Assembly (NCBI GenBank): GCA_012026655.1
Contig: JAAILG010000025.1
Coordinates: 62,001 to 126,000 of the forward strand
DNA length: 64,000 nt
From: Hydrolagus affinis
Taxonomy: Eukaryota
Direction of reading: 5' to 3'
Shown in pieces: positions 8,981 to 51,175 of the stretch; within the stretch, counting starts at the first letter, position 1, and every line of letters starts with the position of its first letter. The notes under the pieces were generated by a model that was not told the DNA's origin, made no database searches, and saw nothing but the letters and a program-made list of their open reading frames with translations. The position numbers and the translations under genes were made by a program.

Positions 8981-10303
8981 TAACTTCCAGAATGTCAGAA
9001 AAATATCAAGGCATTTGTACTCAAAGTGAATGAAATAGTACGATTCCCTATATGTACATTGCTGCAGCAAAAAAATATTCAAAGAAAACATTCAGTATGA
9101 CTTTTTTGTTAGATATCTCCAAAAGTAATATTATTAAATAGAATCCTGTTTTTTTTCCAACTGTTTCCAGCACTGTAGAAAATTAAGATTTTCAAAAAAA
9201 CTATTATCCAACTATAATAAGCTTTTGTCTCCCAACAAACTCTTAATGCTTTTACTAAAATTGAAACCAAAACAGTAGCTGAGTTCAAAAGGTGACTGCT
9301 CGGAATCCGTTAGACCGCAAAATGTTTATTTTGTCACAAAATAAAAACGTTAGGCCAGCGATGTAAGCAAAAGGATTGCACAGTTTGAATTCGGAGATTA
9401 CTTGGCACTCTCTGAAATGTCTCTTACTGTATTTGCCAACTCCTGCTGCTCACCAGTACTGGGACTTTTGGACACAGTTTATTTTTCTTTCCATGTACTG
9501 CTGGCGTTTGAACAACATCAAGGTGACCGAAACCCCCCCGAATTTAAATGGTACACCATATGCTTACACTGTAACAGATACAGTGTGTTCCAAGCTTACA
9601 TCCAAATTGGGAACGATTGGTACAGTTTTGGTATGTATTTTTTCATTAAAAAATCCAGTGGGAATGCTATCATTAAAATTATTTAATTTACATCAATTTT
9701 AATGAGTATTTTAAAATTGCGTGCCCATTCACGACTCGGGAGTTAACGTTTTACTCACCTATGGTATTGTGAGTGTTCTGAGTTGCTATTTTTATTGATG
9801 CAGATATACATCCATGTCAATATTTTTTTAAATTACAATTGAATTGAAACCAATTTTATCATAGAATCAATTGTGCCACTATGTGATGTCCTGTAAGAAA
9901 TCCGCTTAAATCTGAGCCAAATGTTTTGAATGGTGCCATGTTTGGATGTCTTGTGGTGAAAATTACTAATTATTTTTTTGCACAGAGAAGTTAACTCACA
10001 CGGACTGACTTGTACCGAGCTTTCCATTGAGGTTGTTAAAAATGAAAGGAATTGTAATCGTAACAGTTCCGTTTGATTGATTGTTTCAGTTAAAATCTCA
10101 ACCAGGTTCAACCCCAGATTCAAGGTTCAACTTTCATTCTAATGCATTGTGTTAACAATGGCCCTCGATGGTGAGCATTTGTACTTGTATTGACTACCAA
10201 TGAATGTCAGAAAACATTACAATCATTCACCTGTAGCCAGAATCTTGTTCTGAGAACAGAATACAGGGCTGAGTATTGATTGCACAGGGCAGTGTATATA
10301 CCT

Positions 10304-10506
10304 AAAACAACAACAGAAATCCTTGGGAACACTCAGCAGGTCAGGCAGCGTCTATGGAGAAAGGAAAGTGAGTCTGTGAAGTGTTCACAGGAGTGTTCTG
10401 AAGTAGGGTCGTGGACCCAAAACGTTGACGCACTTTCCTTTTCCCAGCAAAAGCGATCTGTTTTTGTTTCAGACTTCCAGCATCCCCAGCACAGTATTTT
10501 GTGTTC
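10304..10506. mobile_element. Degenerate second copy of the palindromic Penelope-like element
   Basis: ACTCAGCAGGTCAGGCAGCGTCTATGGAGAAAGGAAA ... GTTCTGAAGTAGGGTCGTGGACCCAAAACGTTGAC ... TCTGTTTTTGTTTCAGACTTCCAGCATC matches 37385-37615. Confidence 0.75.
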
Positions 10507-10910
10507 GGTGTATACACCTATTTAGCCCTTTGAGAGAAATTATTGTGAGTCTTCAGTACATAAAAGTACAGATCACTGCTGTTTCTACGAGGAATTGATT
10601 CATCTTTTCTAATGAATACTTCATTGCAGTATTAGTAATTCTCTCTCAGTTTTTTTTTAATGCAATTCTCTTTACAAACAGCAGAAGGAGCCAGAATAAC
10701 ATTCCGTGCTGCATTAAGGCACTTTATGAAGGGAAACAGTTCATCCAACCGAACAGAATTGTTTGTTACACGTAGCAGTAAACTGCATTAAAAATTCAAC
10801 ACATCTTTCAATACCTTTAAAATGCAGAACAGGATCACCAGAGACGTCTCGATGAAGCAGGCGCTGGGGCCCATTCAATCTCACCTTTCTGGAATACCTG
10901 ACGGGATATC

Positions 10911-36308: not shown

Positions 36309-37372
36309 GACAGCAGTTACCTGTGAAGCACATTGAGATGGTTCAATGTGATATATATATTTTTTAAAAAGTCATTTCTTTCTGATATTTTTTAACATTT
36401 TACATTGCACGCCTTAGTAATCCCCAATTAATTCTTGCTTATTTTCTGGCACAAAATTGCATTAAAAGATTTCTACATTCCCTATTGGAAAACTGGGTAA
36501 AAATACAACAGGAATCTGCCAACAGTAGTATTTTGAACAGAACAAGAAGGTGCTCGTGTTTCTGAACGTGCTGAATGAGTACTGCTGAGGAGGATTTAGT
36601 GTTTTTTATAAGTACGTGGTGTGACTTTCAATGATCCATAATCAAAGACCTCCGAATACCCAGAGAGCTGTGGCAAGAGACGGCACGAGTAAAAACTGCC
36701 TCCTCCTGAATGTATATAAGCTTCAAGAGCTTCATTACTTTAATGCATTTGCCCTGCTAGAGATGATGTATTCGTCAGAAATGAAGGGCTATGTAATGAA
36801 GGGCTGGGTTTTTCTTCATACAGCGAATACCTCACTGATTGTGACTCAGCTGGCACAGTTCTGACTGGGTTGATGTTGAATCGAATCATTGAATATGTCA
36901 CTCTGCTGCAGAATAACGCCAATTTCTTTGTCTCTTAAGATCGAATGTAGCAGATGACTATTCAGGTGTTTTTTTGTGTGTAAAGGTAAATGGAACGTTG
37001 ATGTGTGCGTGTGCATGTGTGTATGTGTGTGGGTTAACAAGATTATCCAGATGAATAACTGGATACCATTCATCCTTTTGCCTCATATAGGTGTGTGTAT
37101 CTGTTTGTCAGGTTTTTTTTTCGCCTTGCTGGTCCTCAAAGAAAAAGTTGAGAAAATAAAGCAGGCCCCACATACGTTTTTCTCTTCCCAACTGCAAACG
37201 TTTGCACGAATGTCTCCTTAATATTTTTGCCGGCAGGAGATGAATACAGAAGCTTGAGGTTTGGCTCAATGACTAAATCTCCAGAGTCATGTTCATTGCA
37301 GATGTTTGCTGGTTTGGCCACTGCAGTATTGCGATGTGGGTGACTTAAAACAAGCGCAATTCTCCTTTGCAA

Positions 37373-37615
37373 ACAACAAACAACAGAACGCAAAATACTA
37401 CAGATGCTGGGAATCTGAAACAAAAACAGAAGTTGCTGGGGAAACTCAGCAGGTCAGGCAGCATCCATGGAGAAAGGAAAAGGAGTCAACGTTTTGGGTC
37501 TACCACCCTTCAGTTCTGACGAAGGGTTGTAGACCCGAAACGTTGACTCCTTTTCCTTTCTCCATGGATGCTGCCTGACCTCCTGAGTTTCCCCAGCAAC
37601 TTCTGTTTTTGTTTC
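37373..37615. mobile_element. Palindromic non-autonomous Penelope-like insert with 13-bp target-site duplication
   Basis: 95-bp inverted arms (37417-37511 / 37521-37615, 3 mismatches) around a 9-nt loop; TTCTCCTTTGCAA repeated at 37360-37372 and 37613-37625. Penelope assignment rests on the hammerhead core and remembered shark repeats. Confidence 0.75.
37512..37548 (+). ncRNA. Minimal type I hammerhead ribozyme motif (Penelope-type)
   Basis: AGUU-CUGACGA-A-GGGUU(GUA)GACCC-GAAA-CG-UU-GACU: both conserved core boxes, 5-bp helix II, 4-bp helix I (AGUU/GACU), self-complementary AACGUU at helix III. Confidence 0.6.
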
Positions 37616-38699
37616 TCCTTTGCAAGCGCTCGTTCGCTTGAGGTTTTTCAAAGCTGCAAATAATGATATCAACTCCGCCATTTTTCCATCTGCAAGAAAC
37701 TGCAAAAGACGTGTCCATCTGCTGCTACCAACCAATTCTGTTTAGCGATGTTGGAAGGTACTGAAATAAATGGACCCAGTGCCAATAAACCCTTCGCAGG
37801 TTTTACTTGATTATTCCTTCAATATACAGTAATCTGTAACGCCACTCTGGCTTAACTTGTCACCACCACGTAAGTCATTGTGCTGCTAATTTCCCTTCTG
37901 CAATTATTTATGTATTCATAATATGTGTCGAAACCGACTGTTTTTCACTTCCACACGGTTGGATACGGTAATATTACTGATTCCGTTTTACAACCGATGT
38001 ACAACAGAGAAACCGGCCACTTGATCCAACTAGTCTGTGCCTGTGTTTATATTCTAGGACTCAGATATATTCTTGCTTAACCCAAATCCAAGCAAGATAG
38101 TGGTGCACTGTGCTGTTTTACAACCATTATTCAGAAGTCCGCAGGGATAGGGAGAAAGAGAGAGAGATGGTATAAATAAGTATTTTTATGCTGTGCCTTC
38201 ATTAAAGGGGAAATGCGTTTAGGGATGCCGAAATTTCGACCTTGAACCCCTGCAGAAAAGAAAATTTTTGTTACCCATGACATTTGATGGTTGACTGGAA
38301 GGGCAGCTACTGAAGGAACAGCAGATTTAACGGCAGAGCTTTAAATCAACCCCACACAAAAGTGCGGCATGGAGAGTGCACAAATGGTGCATTTCTGCAA
38401 TCTGGAGCTTCAATTGCGCGCACGTTAGCTGTGAATAATTGGTGACTCGGGTTCGATCAGGTGGTGAAATTCTTCAGTTGATAGCGTTTAATGAAACTCT
38501 GGAACATGATGACTGGAATCAGTTCTCGGCCCAATTTATGCAATTACTAGATGCTCACAAATCTCAGGTAGATAAACTTCCATACGAGAATCTCCGTCAA
38601 AATGTAGAAAGGGTGCAGAGTTCCCACTGGTCAAAGTGATTTTCTTCCAGTTTTTGAGAATAGCCCCCTTTCAAGTAGTTTGGGATCTTTATAACGATT

Positions 38700-39005
38700 A
38701 AATGGGACGAGGCGGGGTTGACAGGTGGGATGGTGGCTGAATGCATGGTTGAAGAGGATCTTGAGATTGGTCTTGAAGGAGGCAAGGGAGGGAGCAAGGC
38801 AAAGGAGTTGTGTGATGGAGTTCCAAAGCGTAGGGGCAGACAGATTGAATGCCCTGGCCACCAATAGTAAGGCGGGTTTGGCGGGAGATATGGAGTGGGC
38901 TGGATCCTGCTGAATGGAAGAAGCGGACAGGTTGATAGGGTGTCAGCAGGTCAGAGAGGTAGGAGGGGCAAGGCCTTGGAGGGCCTTGAAAGTGAGGAGG
39001 ATATT
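38700..39005 (-). mobile_element. L2 LINE 3' fragment
   Basis: NILLTFKALQGLAP... and ARAFNLSAPTLWNSITQLLCLAPSLASFKTNLKILF. Confidence 0.85.
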
Positions 39006-39885
39006 TAATTCAAATAAATAGTGATATGATTGCCTGTAGGTGGGAATCTGTTTTTGATGTTTGTTTATCATCTGAATTTCATGCCATTCAGTAAATGTAT
39101 TAAAATTCCCAGATATTGACTCGAAACTTCTGATTTGTTGAAATTGCTTTGACACAGATAGATGACAGTTTTTAATTCCATTGTCTATTTTATCTGTTTT
39201 CATTAGTGCTGCCTTTTGACAACCTGGTAGATTCTTATTTTTGGCCCTTATCTTATTGTCAATATATTGAGCTCTGTCTGTGCGATTTTTCTCTTTATCT
39301 GATGAGTACCGGTAGCTAATTCTAGTCTGGCAAGTGTGCATGTTCCAATTTAATCTCTGCAGAGGAGGAAAGACAGTCTGTTGCAAGTGCAGATCCTTGT
39401 TAAATAATAGTATACTAAAGGACAATTGTCCAAATTGTATTGTGAATCCAAATTAAATAACTTGCTTTCACCCTACATTGAGCATCAACATTTTCAAGAA
39501 GCGCTCGAGTAATATTGGTCGAAAAGGGGCTGTTTAAATTTGCAATCCTGTTCTTACGCAAGTAAATGGCATTTCAAAAAATGCTTTCAAACATTTAAAC
39601 AAAAATCACCAAAGTTACGCTCACCTGTTCGCTATTCTGGAAGCATTTTTGCTTTTTTTTGAATACTGGGAGAACATTTGTGGATCTTGGCTTCTTTTCT
39701 ACCATAGAATACATTCTGTTTGGTGCCCTTCTTTTCATAATTGAGCTCCAGCTCTCAAAAGCGTTCTGCTCAAACATCTCAGATGTTTCTCTATTCAATA
39801 TTATCCAAAATGCACTAAACATTACAATCATAGCCTCGGAAATGATCTGCACCCCGACTGCCATGATCGTTCGCTGAGGGTCACA

Positions 39886-44688: not shown

Positions 44689-45388
44689 AGTTTCAGATTC
44701 TGCCTCTTATTTTAAGTTACTGTGATTATACTATTTTACAGAATAAGAAATTAAAAGGGACGTTAAAAGGATTGGAAACCTGGGGTGATACTCAGCGGTT
44801 TCCAACGCTGACAACAGAACAATTTACTTGTACATGTGTTATATCCTAGTACGACCATATGTTTCTCCATTGCCATTTCACTGACATCAATACATCACAA
44901 GATGGGTTGCAACTTCAATGGTGGAACGTGGGTACTTTTGTGAGACAAAATGCTTTGTTTACCTCTTTGCTGCAATTCAAGAAGGAATATTTATTTATGC
45001 ACAGAATTAATTATGTTTCTGCTCACTTGCTACCGTGTTTGTGTATTAATACAAACAATTCAAGGAGCGAATGTGTCTTGTTTGAGTAAACATGCTATTT
45101 TTTCAATTGTGGTTCCACCATTAGAGACAAGCAGCTGTGAACATGCTTGAGTTGTACTTCCAATGAAAGTTTGTTTCTTCTGGTAGTGAAAAATTACAGA
45201 GCTGAAGGTACAACTCGCATTATACTCAATTTATGCTGAGTTTGTTTTTCTATTCACTGGTATAAATCGAGACAATAAGAATTGAAGCAAATTTCCCTGG
45301 AGCCTGGCTGCTGAAACCACTTTGAGTTTGTGATTTGCGCGATATATAATAATAATAATCCTTGCATTTGATATAGTGCTTTTCACGC

Positions 45389-45830
45389 TGGAAGGGAATT
45401 CCAGAACCTCGGGGCGTAGTGGCTGAAGGCACGGCCGCCGAGGGTGGAGCGGAGGATTCGGGGGGACATGGAGGAGCCCAGACCCAGAGGAGCGAAGGCA
45501 GCGGGTGCTGGTTTGGGGGGAGAGGAGGTCAGAGAGATAGGGGGGTGCAGAGAAGTGGAGGGATTTGAAAACAAGGGTGAGGATCTTGAAGTCGATCCTC
45601 TCTGGGATAGGGAGCCAGTGAAGTCTGGCAAGGACTGGGGTAATGGGGGAGCGAAGCTCAGAGCGGGTGAGTATGCGGGCGGCAGAGTTTTGGATGAGCT
45701 GGATTTTGTGGATTGTGGTGGAGGGGAGACCGGAGAGGAGGGCATTGCAATAGTCCAGCCGAGAGGTGACAAAGGCCTGGACCAGGGTTTCAGCGGCTTT
45801 TTGGGGGGTGAGGTATTGCCCATTATATTG
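45389..45830 (-). mobile_element. L2-clade LINE ORF2 C-terminal fragment
   Basis: Minus-strand frame, not the one in the ORF track, reads [45 protein letters not shown]...[22 protein letters not shown], a typical post-RT L2 motif set. Confidence 0.92.
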
Positions 45831-47212
45831 AAAGCATGGGCGTTTGATCCTGAAGTTCTACCAACTTTGGCGTTTGTTCTGTTTCCTTCTGTGAGCCCCA
45901 AGCCCTCTCCCCCCCCTACCCCCCCACCCACCTTGATATTAATGTTGAACTGCTGCTAAATAGCACTATTGTCCAGAACGTTAACACTATTCAACAATCC
46001 TGTGACTGCCCACGATTGAGGGGGCGGGGTGGGGGGGGGAGTGGGGGGGAGGTCACTGACCTTATTAACGAGCAACATGGCTAATGGTATTGTGATGATC
46101 TTCTGGCTTCACTCTGAGCTTGTCGCCCCCTCACCCGCGAACGGCGAGGGTCGTCGCAGCAAAAAGGCTTGCCGGAATAAGAGCGGGTGGGTGGGGTCGA
46201 AAACATTCAATAACTCCGTAAATCTGTAGAGACCCAAACACACAAGAGAGAGGAAAATGAAAATGTCAGATGAGCTGATTTTTGTTAAGTGCAAATCCAA
46301 CGCCGTCTGGAGTTGCCGCGCACACAGTGTTTTGTCATTTAACTTGCGCAGTGCGATCATCTGTCTGTGTCACGTCGAATAAATGAACGGTACAAACGGT
46401 GCGGCTGCTGATAGTTTGGGTTTGGGCCTTCCCGCGATGCCATTAACTGCTCCGATTTGATTTCAATGGATATTTTTTTAAAAAAACACCCTCCCACCCC
46501 CCTCCACCCCCAGCGTTTTCACTGAGAAGGGAGAAATGGACGTGAGCTGTGCTCTGATCTGAAGGCATCGAGACTTTGCATCCGGCATCTCCCCGCTGGC
46601 TCATTTCTACACATTGCTACTTGTGTGTCCTTGCGATGTACTTGTTACTGCACCATTTATTCTCGGCCTGGCTCTGTCTCTCCCCTCTGGGGATTGAGCT
46701 GCAGAACTCCACTCTCGCCAGTGTTCACTTCGCAGTGGAAGCTAATGGTTTTAATAAAAGGAATTGTGCTTCCCAACTGCAGTGTGTGCGTGTATGTGTT
46801 TGCATGTGTGTATATTTGACAGTAGCTTCAAAAATTCCCCCCCAAACCACAGTTCACTCACGTCTTATGAACTGAAATTAAAAATAAAAATAAAAACGCG
46901 CCGACCTCGGCCGAGATAGCAGATGCGATGAAATACTTGGGTGTCAGGACTGTAAAGGTGAGGAATAGGACAGTTAATTCGGGTTCCCACTCTCACTGCC
47001 AGGATCCTGAACCAACCCCCCACACCCCCACCCCTCCGCCTCTTCTCTTCCATTGGAAGCTTTGATTTGTGGACGTCGGACGAGGAATCAGGGCTGCAGT
47101 GAGCCTCGCTGATAATCACAGTTCGAAACTCACGGGGGTAGAACTGAGGTTCCCTGGAAACCCTCAGGAAAGCTCCTTCTCTCTCCTCTCTCTCTTGAAA
47201 TGGGCCCGAAGC

Positions 47213-50676: not shown

Positions 50677-50946
50677 ATGCCAGCTATTCTCGTGGCCTCG
50701 AAAATGAAGTCGGGGCTGCCCAAGCCAGTGCACAGCGCCGCGCCCATCCTTCACGTGGCGTCGCGGGTGCCGCGGCAGCCCGGCTACCTGAGGCTCGGAG
50801 GCGAGGCGGAGGTGAGCGGCAAGCCGACCTACTCCAGCCAGATCCCGCTCAAGTCCCCGCACGGACCGCTCGGCGAAGGTGAACTTGGCAGGGGGGAGGA
50901 GGAGGGGAGGAAGCCCGCCCTGGCCGAGAATGGATTTGACACTCAG
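50677..50946 (+). CDS. NAV2: Neuron navigator 2, first coding exon (90 codons, phase-0 donor); the gene continues beyond the window
   Basis: Translation MPAILVASKMKSGLPKPVHSAAPILHVASRVPRQPGYLRLGGEAEVSGKPTYSSQIPLKS...ENGFDTQ matches the remembered N-terminus of vertebrate NAV2 (MPAILVASKMKSGLPKPVHSAAPILHV...ENGFDTQ|IYTDWAN). Similarity stops exactly at CAG|GTTAGA. GC-rich codons within a CpG island. Confidence 0.95.
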
Positions 50947-51175
50947 GTTAGAGAACGTGATTCAGACGAGTTTAAACACTCTTTTTTTATATATATATAT
51001 ATATTTATACGTGTTTGAGAGATCCGCCTTGTTCTTTTGCAGATTTAATTCATGTTAAATTTTTTTTAAAAAAATCTTGCTTTTTTTTGGTAATAAATAT
51101 ATATATATATAAACATATATAAATGTCTCGAAACACTTCTCGGGAATGTAGTGACTGTGTATTTGCTTTTTGAGG

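Follow-up and report, generated by a model that had tools for sequence, protein, structure and literature searches.

A hammerhead-bearing palindrome upstream of NAV2 is the pLTR end of a Penelope-like retrotransposon and was probably assembled where it landed

In the window, which is the whole 64-kb stretch of DNA analysed here, a mirror-image insert of 243 bases with a hammerhead motif at its apex precedes the NAV2 start-codon exon (50677..50949, + strand) by 13 kb. The locus raises the question of whether such a palindrome moved as one piece, with a ribozyme switched by its own hairpin, as a sequence-only reading had proposed, or was put together at its landing site. The geometry given in that reading is accurate: the inverted arms (37417-37511 and 37521-37615) are 95 nt each, are separated by 9 nt, differ by three mismatches (37450/37582, 37495/37537, and 37504/37528), and are enclosed by two direct repeats of 13 nt (37360-72 on the left, 37613-25 on the right). 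The 9 nt described as a loop are present; they open the + arm and are missing from the - arm. The whole hairpin has a predicted folding energy of -189 kcal/mol (z = -24.9), matched by 0/200 shuffled sequences. The insert has no ORF, and the unit is not tandemly repeated within 36500-38500.

In the family numbering used here, position 0 is window A37512, where hammerhead helix I begins. The left TSD (37360..37372, unstranded) is 10-13 bp long, because the first 3 nt of the right one (37613..37625, unstranded) double as the end of the element; relatives of the insert have TSDs of their own. A 9-nt AAC-type repeat (37373..37381, - strand), absent from the family, separates the TSD from the tail and is likely to be priming stutter or filler. 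The adjoining 35-nt PLE 'tail' (37382..37416, - strand, family +104..+138), a term that we take from the available text of PMC11167929, is the interval separating two RT start sites, seen as bimodal 3' ends in the family. The tailed pLTR arm as a whole (37382..37511, - strand, family +9..+138) lacks the CUGA box and carries the changes G25A, a CpG decay, and T16G. The short pLTR arm (37511..37615, + strand, family -1..+103) begins at a hot spot of 5' stops, has a single private change, at 37582, and contains the minimal type I hammerhead motif (37512..37548, + strand), which was located by our own descriptor following the definition in PMC4209133. The sequence-only reading was thus right about the arms, the repeat, and the hammerhead, and left the one-sided 35-nt extension and the AAC-type repeat unnamed. 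Family positions +90..+106 (window 37602-37615) form a pyrimidine run ending in CAG, which resembles a splice acceptor and is followed by the first RT start site. PLEs often carry an intron in the pLTR; RNA reads aligned to a parent copy gave no splicing at this run. To the left of the insert, positions 36771-36805 contain an 18-nt match to the apex, in reverse complement, beside an 11-nt direct repeat, which may be a remnant or may be due to chance.

The family to which the insert belongs is large. A DNA search of the genome returned 2479 candidates; the best 40 scored were all near full length (90-100%), with palindromes of about 220-245 bp and their own TSDs in 40/40. Exact patterns matched 447 (hammerhead 30-mer), 2158 (downstream 31-mer), and 2520 (degenerate core) times, and the reversed-pattern controls for all three gave 0 matches. 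Sample 1 consisted of the first 90 of the 447 hammerhead 30-mer matches; an adjacent inverted arm was present in 31/90 of these loci, and the rest were solo arms or continued upstream into a common 290-bp pyrimidine-rich UTR. Sample 2 was unbiased, being drawn with a pattern outside the hammerhead, and comprised 89 loci among the first 100 matches. Removal of 4 overlapping loci left 85 mapped, minus one duplicated contig copy, and the count of pairs additionally leaves out the focal copy. An inverted partner was found in 45 of the 83 insertions counted in this way, and the solo arms were divided into 19 long-ended and 19 short-ended. Three samples were pooled into a set of 95 non-redundant palindromes, 30 of which came from a similarity search favouring the palindrome shape. 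The genome-wide copy count proposed by the sequence-only reading returned thousands of pattern matches, with TSDs of their own in 77/95 palindromes. Two copies on contig C283 of genome G000 (L257 and L258) are identical, flanks included, and lie ~8 kb apart in opposite orientation, as a result of local duplication or an assembly artefact. For several other copies (L006, L007, L023, L026, L034, and others) the insertion site is one and the same AT-rich segment of a different abundant repeat, pointing to target preference.

The focal insert is the pLTR end of an abundant RT and GIY-YIG Penelope-like retrotransposon, so the Penelope-like origin that had been proposed is upheld. The parent was reached by walking upstream from hammerhead matches. 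The UTR is preceded by an ORF whose end encodes a CX4CxxC linker (CQRRRCNTC) and a GIY-YIG domain; the parent frame upstream is an RT with a YIDD motif (RVT_1, E 1.5e-6) that continues into GIY-YIG (E 2.7e-4), with both the RVT_1 and GIY-YIG scores ~1 bit below the Pfam curated cut-off. The search with the parent protein yielded 4298 candidates, the best 150 of which were scored and 30 loci examined. The same arm, 84-96% identical, was located downstream of EN in 24 of the 25 loci with enough flank, a set that includes the query's own locus. Homologues of the parent carry PF00078, and several also PF01541; bamboo shark, whale shark, and rays supply the closest named ones (58-64%), which makes a cartilaginous-fish host likely, and others come from marine invertebrates. 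Reading frames were broken in the parent copies examined. The near full-length copy L201 (G000:C11589, 1074-4220, - strand) spans ~3.1 kb in the order pLTR piece (+61..+139), tail, ORF with frameshifts and stops, UTR, and full pLTR, and the pLTR is thus present on both sides of the parent ORF. From the linker motif, the parent may be assigned to the Neptune/Nematis type, which is defined by a CX2-5CxxC linker before GIY-YIG in the accessible text of PMC8557442; the homologues retrieved include no reference labelled with a PLE clade. Of 24 genome matches to the Pfam GIY-YIG profile, the 20 loci inspected were rejected as parent candidates: these loci, many of them short contigs, belong to other sequence families and have neither the arm nor a hammerhead recognised by the descriptor. 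These other GIY-YIG families (L061-L080), unlinked to the focal pLTR, include L077 with a 323-aa PLE-like frame.

The ends of the arms record how the palindromes were formed. In sample 2, arm 3' ends are bimodal, at about +93..+112 and +135..+140, giving two end points 35 nt apart. A long end is combined with a short end in 44/45 unbiased pairs, where ~48% would be expected (p 1e-12), and in 88/95 palindromes of all sets, and the tail-bearing arm can be either of the two. TSDs of 10-17 bp with a mode of 14, microhomology counted in and one mismatch allowed, flank 77/95 palindromes, compared with 2/95 of swapped-flank controls. These variable lengths bear out the earlier proposal of retrotransposition as opposed to MITE movement; the fixed short TSDs typical of MITEs, which that proposal had named as evidence against itself, were not found. 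The two arms of a palindrome share alleles: symmetric non-CpG variants number 68, against 17.9 in permutations (maximum 28 in 500), and at the polymorphic site +38 the arms agree in 61/70 cases (46% expected), with the C allele in both arms of the focal copy. Arm-to-arm gene conversion could yield symmetric variants, yet the arms differ by a median of 5.3% and identical pairs number 0/72. Alleles are also common to palindromic and UTR-linked copies.

Among the 95 palindromes, 87 junctions are distinct and some recur 2-4 times each; filler is present in 48/88. A new junction almost every time argues against a palindromic donor moving whole, which would transmit its junction. The untailed arm extends further 5' in 39/88 palindromes (18/37 of the unbiased ones) and the tailed arm in 26, and the untailed arm is therefore not a fold-back copy of the tailed one, although post-insertion deletions at the hairpin apex could vary the junctions and undo nesting. 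It is probable that two cDNAs from RNA of the same source, primed at both target nicks, assembled the palindrome at its landing site. The mechanism is deduced throughout from dead copies, among which no intermediate was seen. The anole PLE behaves similarly in vitro: both strands are cut and extended, two RT starts bound the tail, the template is uncut RNA, and the protein is a predicted dimer, as far as the available text of PMC11167929 describes.

The 5' ends of the arms are concentrated at the edge of the hammerhead. Of 84 arms, 42 have this end at -3..+10 (uniform distribution rejected, p 1e-23), while -60..-4 accounts for 7 and +11..+59 for 16; several copies of a sister subfamily have the same 5' edge. 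The predicted cut site at +31..+35 holds the 5' ends of 0/84 arms and 0/45 partner arms, and 76/84 arms cross it. A sharp left wall with a rightward tail is the pattern that would be expected of run-off at an RNA 5' end. Stops at the hammerhead 5' edge, with none at the cut site, make it likely that the template was uncut RNA starting there. A template that was cut and circularised would cross the cut site too, but provides no reason for a stop at 0. The sequence CCAGTT at the stop site is Inr-like. An internal Inr-type promoter is present in the pLTR of Drosophila Penelope (PMC2377424, available text), and transcription starts of PLEs have been located in the pLTR (PMC6765202, available text). 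An additional cap-type G before position 0 is weakly enriched (11/26, p 0.03, rows non-independent), and a T that is frequent at -2 belongs in most cases to the end of the TSD or to the partner arm. A look-up of RNA data sets matching the focal stretch listed none. Two RNA runs aligned to the parent copy, both polyA single-cell data from one sample of organism B of which ~30% was read, gave pLTR reads on both strands and ORF reads mostly in one orientation; these runs are uninformative on the focal locus. That polyA sample had no pile-up of RNA starts or ends on the parent copy.

Two other causes of the stop were considered and rejected. Splicing to the AG at positions 0-1 as a 3' splice site does not fit, as the copies have no common upstream exon and include A0, and a block of RT by the folded hammerhead is at odds with the stops, which we infer to be located beyond the helix, on its 5' side. 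We consider the chances evenly balanced that the short inserts are the Penelope counterpart of retroviral strong-stop DNA, in which uncut RNA from the first base of the hammerhead is copied by a dimer priming at both nicks and about half of the cDNAs run off.

The hammerhead on the + strand consists of CUGACGA (37516-22), an unpaired A, helix II (37524-28/37532-36), GAAA (37537-40), CG, and UU, with helix I AGUU:GACU, a palindromic helix III (37539-44), and a predicted cut after 37544. Its core boxes, the additional base ahead of helix II, the G10.1-C11.1 pair, the palindrome of helix III, and helix I all conform to a minimal type I hammerhead, the class to which the motif had been assigned. 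The descriptor gave this single match in the 64-kb window with both strands scanned. The hammerhead families of Rfam had no match up to E 10; Rfam miRNA and snoRNA matches were dismissed as hairpin artefacts under their gathering scores. A palindrome-mediated self-duplex of the motif is predicted at -5.7 kcal/mol. Imposing helices I and II on the complete + strand RNA would cost 42.3 kcal/mol, compared with 33 kcal/mol in the nascent chain just past helix I and 3.7 kcal/mol in the arm alone. A read-through RNA would not switch, because its left arm is transcribed first, and its 95-bp stem is predicted to prevent folding of the hammerhead; an RNA beginning at position 0 would be free of the left arm. 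The proposed switch between hairpin and ribozyme is thus disfavoured by these models. According to the accessible part of PMC4209133, the minimal hammerhead of Schistosoma has no cleavage as a monomer and low cleavage as a dimer in vitro, and cleavage by the PAc hammerhead needed protein (PMC11167929, available text).

Conservation of the core was measured on arms chosen without regard to the motif. Non-CpG changes amount to 22/843 in the core (2.6%), 349/8271 outside it (4.2%), and 42/2064 in the stretch +41..+58 (2.0%), and CpG-site decay is 16.7% in core and non-core alike. These counts give no sign of selection on the hammerhead core among the copies; its bases decay about like the neighbouring ones. 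A core kept no better than its flanks was listed in the sequence-only reading as counting against its proposal, and this is roughly what the copies contain. The - arm of the focal copy indeed has AAAA instead of GAAA and no CUGANGA, as had been reported. The AAAA arose by the loss of G25, a CpG site. The asymmetry between strands is specific to this copy, and a design with only one catalytic-looking strand is not supported: the asymmetry results from a CpG G-to-A change, of a kind found in 17% of arms, and a cDNA that ended 9 nt early, and both cores are retained in 9/95 palindromes of all sets. Among 39 unbiased palindromes, the core is intact in neither arm of 27, in one arm of 11, and in both arms of 1.

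The surroundings of the insert contain other repeats. A second, older palindromic insertion (10292..10520, unstranded), from a sister subfamily, has a 13-bp TSD with 1 mismatch, has lost an internal segment, and contains filler at its apex. Copies of the sister subfamily were retrieved with a pattern that fixed the core; the subfamily differs from the focal family at 14/139 sites, and in helix II a C-G replaces the U-G of the focal family with pairing kept. Translation of 45231-45955 and 38597-39009 indicates putative degenerate LINE-like RT fragments. The ribozyme and NAV2 are both on the + strand, as had been stated, and more NAV2 exons follow downstream on that strand (G000:C25, 146-187 kb). 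Five homologues, all starting at the same exon, revealed no upstream NAV2 exon in C25:2001-62000; one may still exist. Contigs of two organisms, A and B, whose flanks are ~1.5% diverged, enter the element from both sides, and the insertion is therefore older than their split. The search for an empty orthologous site that had been suggested found none in 4 DNA runs, taken from at least 15 matching data sets, two of which did not bridge the element ends, and none of the 15 listed joints, out of 203, skips the element.

A rival view, built on the sequence-only reading, makes the insert a palindromic mini-retroelement without autonomy, or a unit resembling a MITE, mobile as a whole and with a hairpin that turns its ribozyme on and off. 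The many near full-length palindromes with their own TSDs would suit such a unit, as would the few junctions seen 2-4 times, but the 40 scored copies were chosen by palindrome shape, and in sets drawn by pattern palindromes make up 31/90 and 45/83, beside solo and ORF-linked arms that are equally common. Junctions that vary between copies, a tail found on either arm, alleles shared with UTR-linked copies, variable TSD lengths, and a ribozyme fold that is far more costly in the full RNA than in the arm alone all contradict it. Movement as one piece is largely refuted, and we regard the proposal as very improbable. Fold-back self-priming is a somewhat better candidate, though still unlikely. Here, a cDNA or antisense template would fold onto itself at a short palindrome close to the hammerhead and be copied into the mirror arm, with apex deletions blurring the junctions, as was proposed for Adineta Penelopes in the accessible text of PMC3846280. 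It accounts for the same alleles in both arms and for recurrent junctions on short self-complementary words near -1..+4 (~12/88). A fold-back copy must, however, nest within the first strand, and the untailed arm reaches up to ~100 nt further 5' in the 39/88 palindromes noted above; filler is frequent, and the end of the second arm at the other RT start is left unexplained; solo arms use both starts equally.

The least probable of the explanations, to which we give hardly any weight, is that NAV2 has recruited the focal copy for its regulation, as a ribozyme or as a hairpin. The shared strand, the intact core on +, and an orthologous insertion in two related organisms are compatible with co-option. 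Sharing needs no selection, since the flanks of these organisms differ so little, and the insert is far upstream of the start-codon exon with no transcript seen to cross it. Its arms have diverged at 3/95 positions (3.2%), near the lower quartile of the family (quartiles 3.5-6.7%), which fits ordinary decay; at least one intact core is common, being found in 12/39 unbiased palindromes, and minimal hammerheads of this kind lack activity in vitro as monomers in the available account of PMC4209133.

Assembly at the landing site from two cDNAs may have proceeded as follows. The parent transcript would begin at about position 0, at the Inr-like CCAGTT, and would not yet be cut by the hammerhead. 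The RT-GIY-YIG protein, likely a dimer, would nick both target strands about 10-16 bp apart, and RNA of a single source element would be primed at ~+104 by one 3'-OH and at ~+139 by the other. Both cDNAs would extend towards the RNA 5' end, reaching -1/0 and +9 in the focal copy, and their 3' ends would be joined via microhomology or filler into a head-to-head palindrome with a TSD. Extension of a single nick would leave a solo arm, and priming at the downstream pLTR would give copies carrying the 3' UTR and ORF. The focal copy would later have decayed as its siblings did.

Inverted pLTRs, a one-sided tail, and a TSD are textbook features of PLEs (PMC3846280, PMC8557442, PMC8969392, available text). 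The insert architecture is already published, and the focal locus is ordinary in kind. Inserts of EN+ PLEs (Pen2a_Av of Adineta, PMC3846280; PMC8557442, Fig. 2; D. virilis Penelope, PMC2377424), in the portions of these papers available, also have head-to-head pLTRs, a hammerhead in the pLTR, a parent with RT and C-terminal GIY-YIG, and a tail at one end, of 30-40 nt there and 35 nt here; TSDs of 8-10 bp are reported there, compared with 10-17 here. Unlike those inserts, the focal one consists of two pLTR ends and no ORF, and both arms tend to stop at the hammerhead 5' edge. PAc (Poseidon_Ac of the green anole, PMC11167929, available text), studied in vitro, is similar in its RT starts ~100 and 135-140 nt past the hammerhead, which bound the tail, and in cutting and extending both strands with use of uncut RNA, which are deduced here from copies alone. 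PAc belongs to the Penelope/Poseidon clade and its ORF begins in the hammerhead, whereas the focal parent has a CX4CxxC linker and its long frame starts further downstream.

The motif resembles the minimal hammerheads of metazoan PLEs (PMC4209133, accessible text) in CUGANGA/GAAA, the extra base, G10.1-C11.1, palindromic 15.2-16.2, and a 4-bp helix I. Helix II is 5 bp here, in a motif known from sequence alone, and 7-8 bp in the Schistosoma families; pairs of minimal hammerheads on opposite strands 100-700 bp apart were noted in the same 2014 work. Non-LTR retrozymes (bioRxiv 10.64898/2026.07.22.740005, available part) are likewise short, non-coding, hammerhead-bearing, and derived from PLE pLTRs, but they are head-to-tail tandem arrays, whereas the focal insert is dispersed, pairs its arms head to head, and has a TSD. 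Classification as a non-LTR retrozyme was rejected because of this head-to-head pairing and the lack of tandem units in 36500-38500, and that as a MITE or DNA transposon because of the one-sided tail, variable TSD, variable junction, and solo arms. In L1 twin priming, both target nicks prime cDNA on the element RNA, which leads to an inversion with a TSD, and the two segments do not overlap. The focal arms, in contrast, both copy the same 95 nt. A search of the main texts of openly accessible papers found neither a description of this PLE family from cartilaginous fish nor a tally of PLE 5' stops.

The focal locus itself matters little, as it is one decaying copy among thousands. The counts bear on an open question about PLEs, namely the origin of the inverted pLTR and tail and the role of the hammerhead. 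The rule of one tail per pair, the non-nested arms, and the stop at the 5' edge agree with the behaviour of PAc in vitro. If the short inserts are strong-stop DNA, the genome records the start of transcription, and the ribozyme is silent during integration. Arms that keep the Inr could then be transcribed outward without the mirror arm, seeding copies. The counts are modestly informative on the mechanism of PLEs, and they give sharp predictions for an integration assay.
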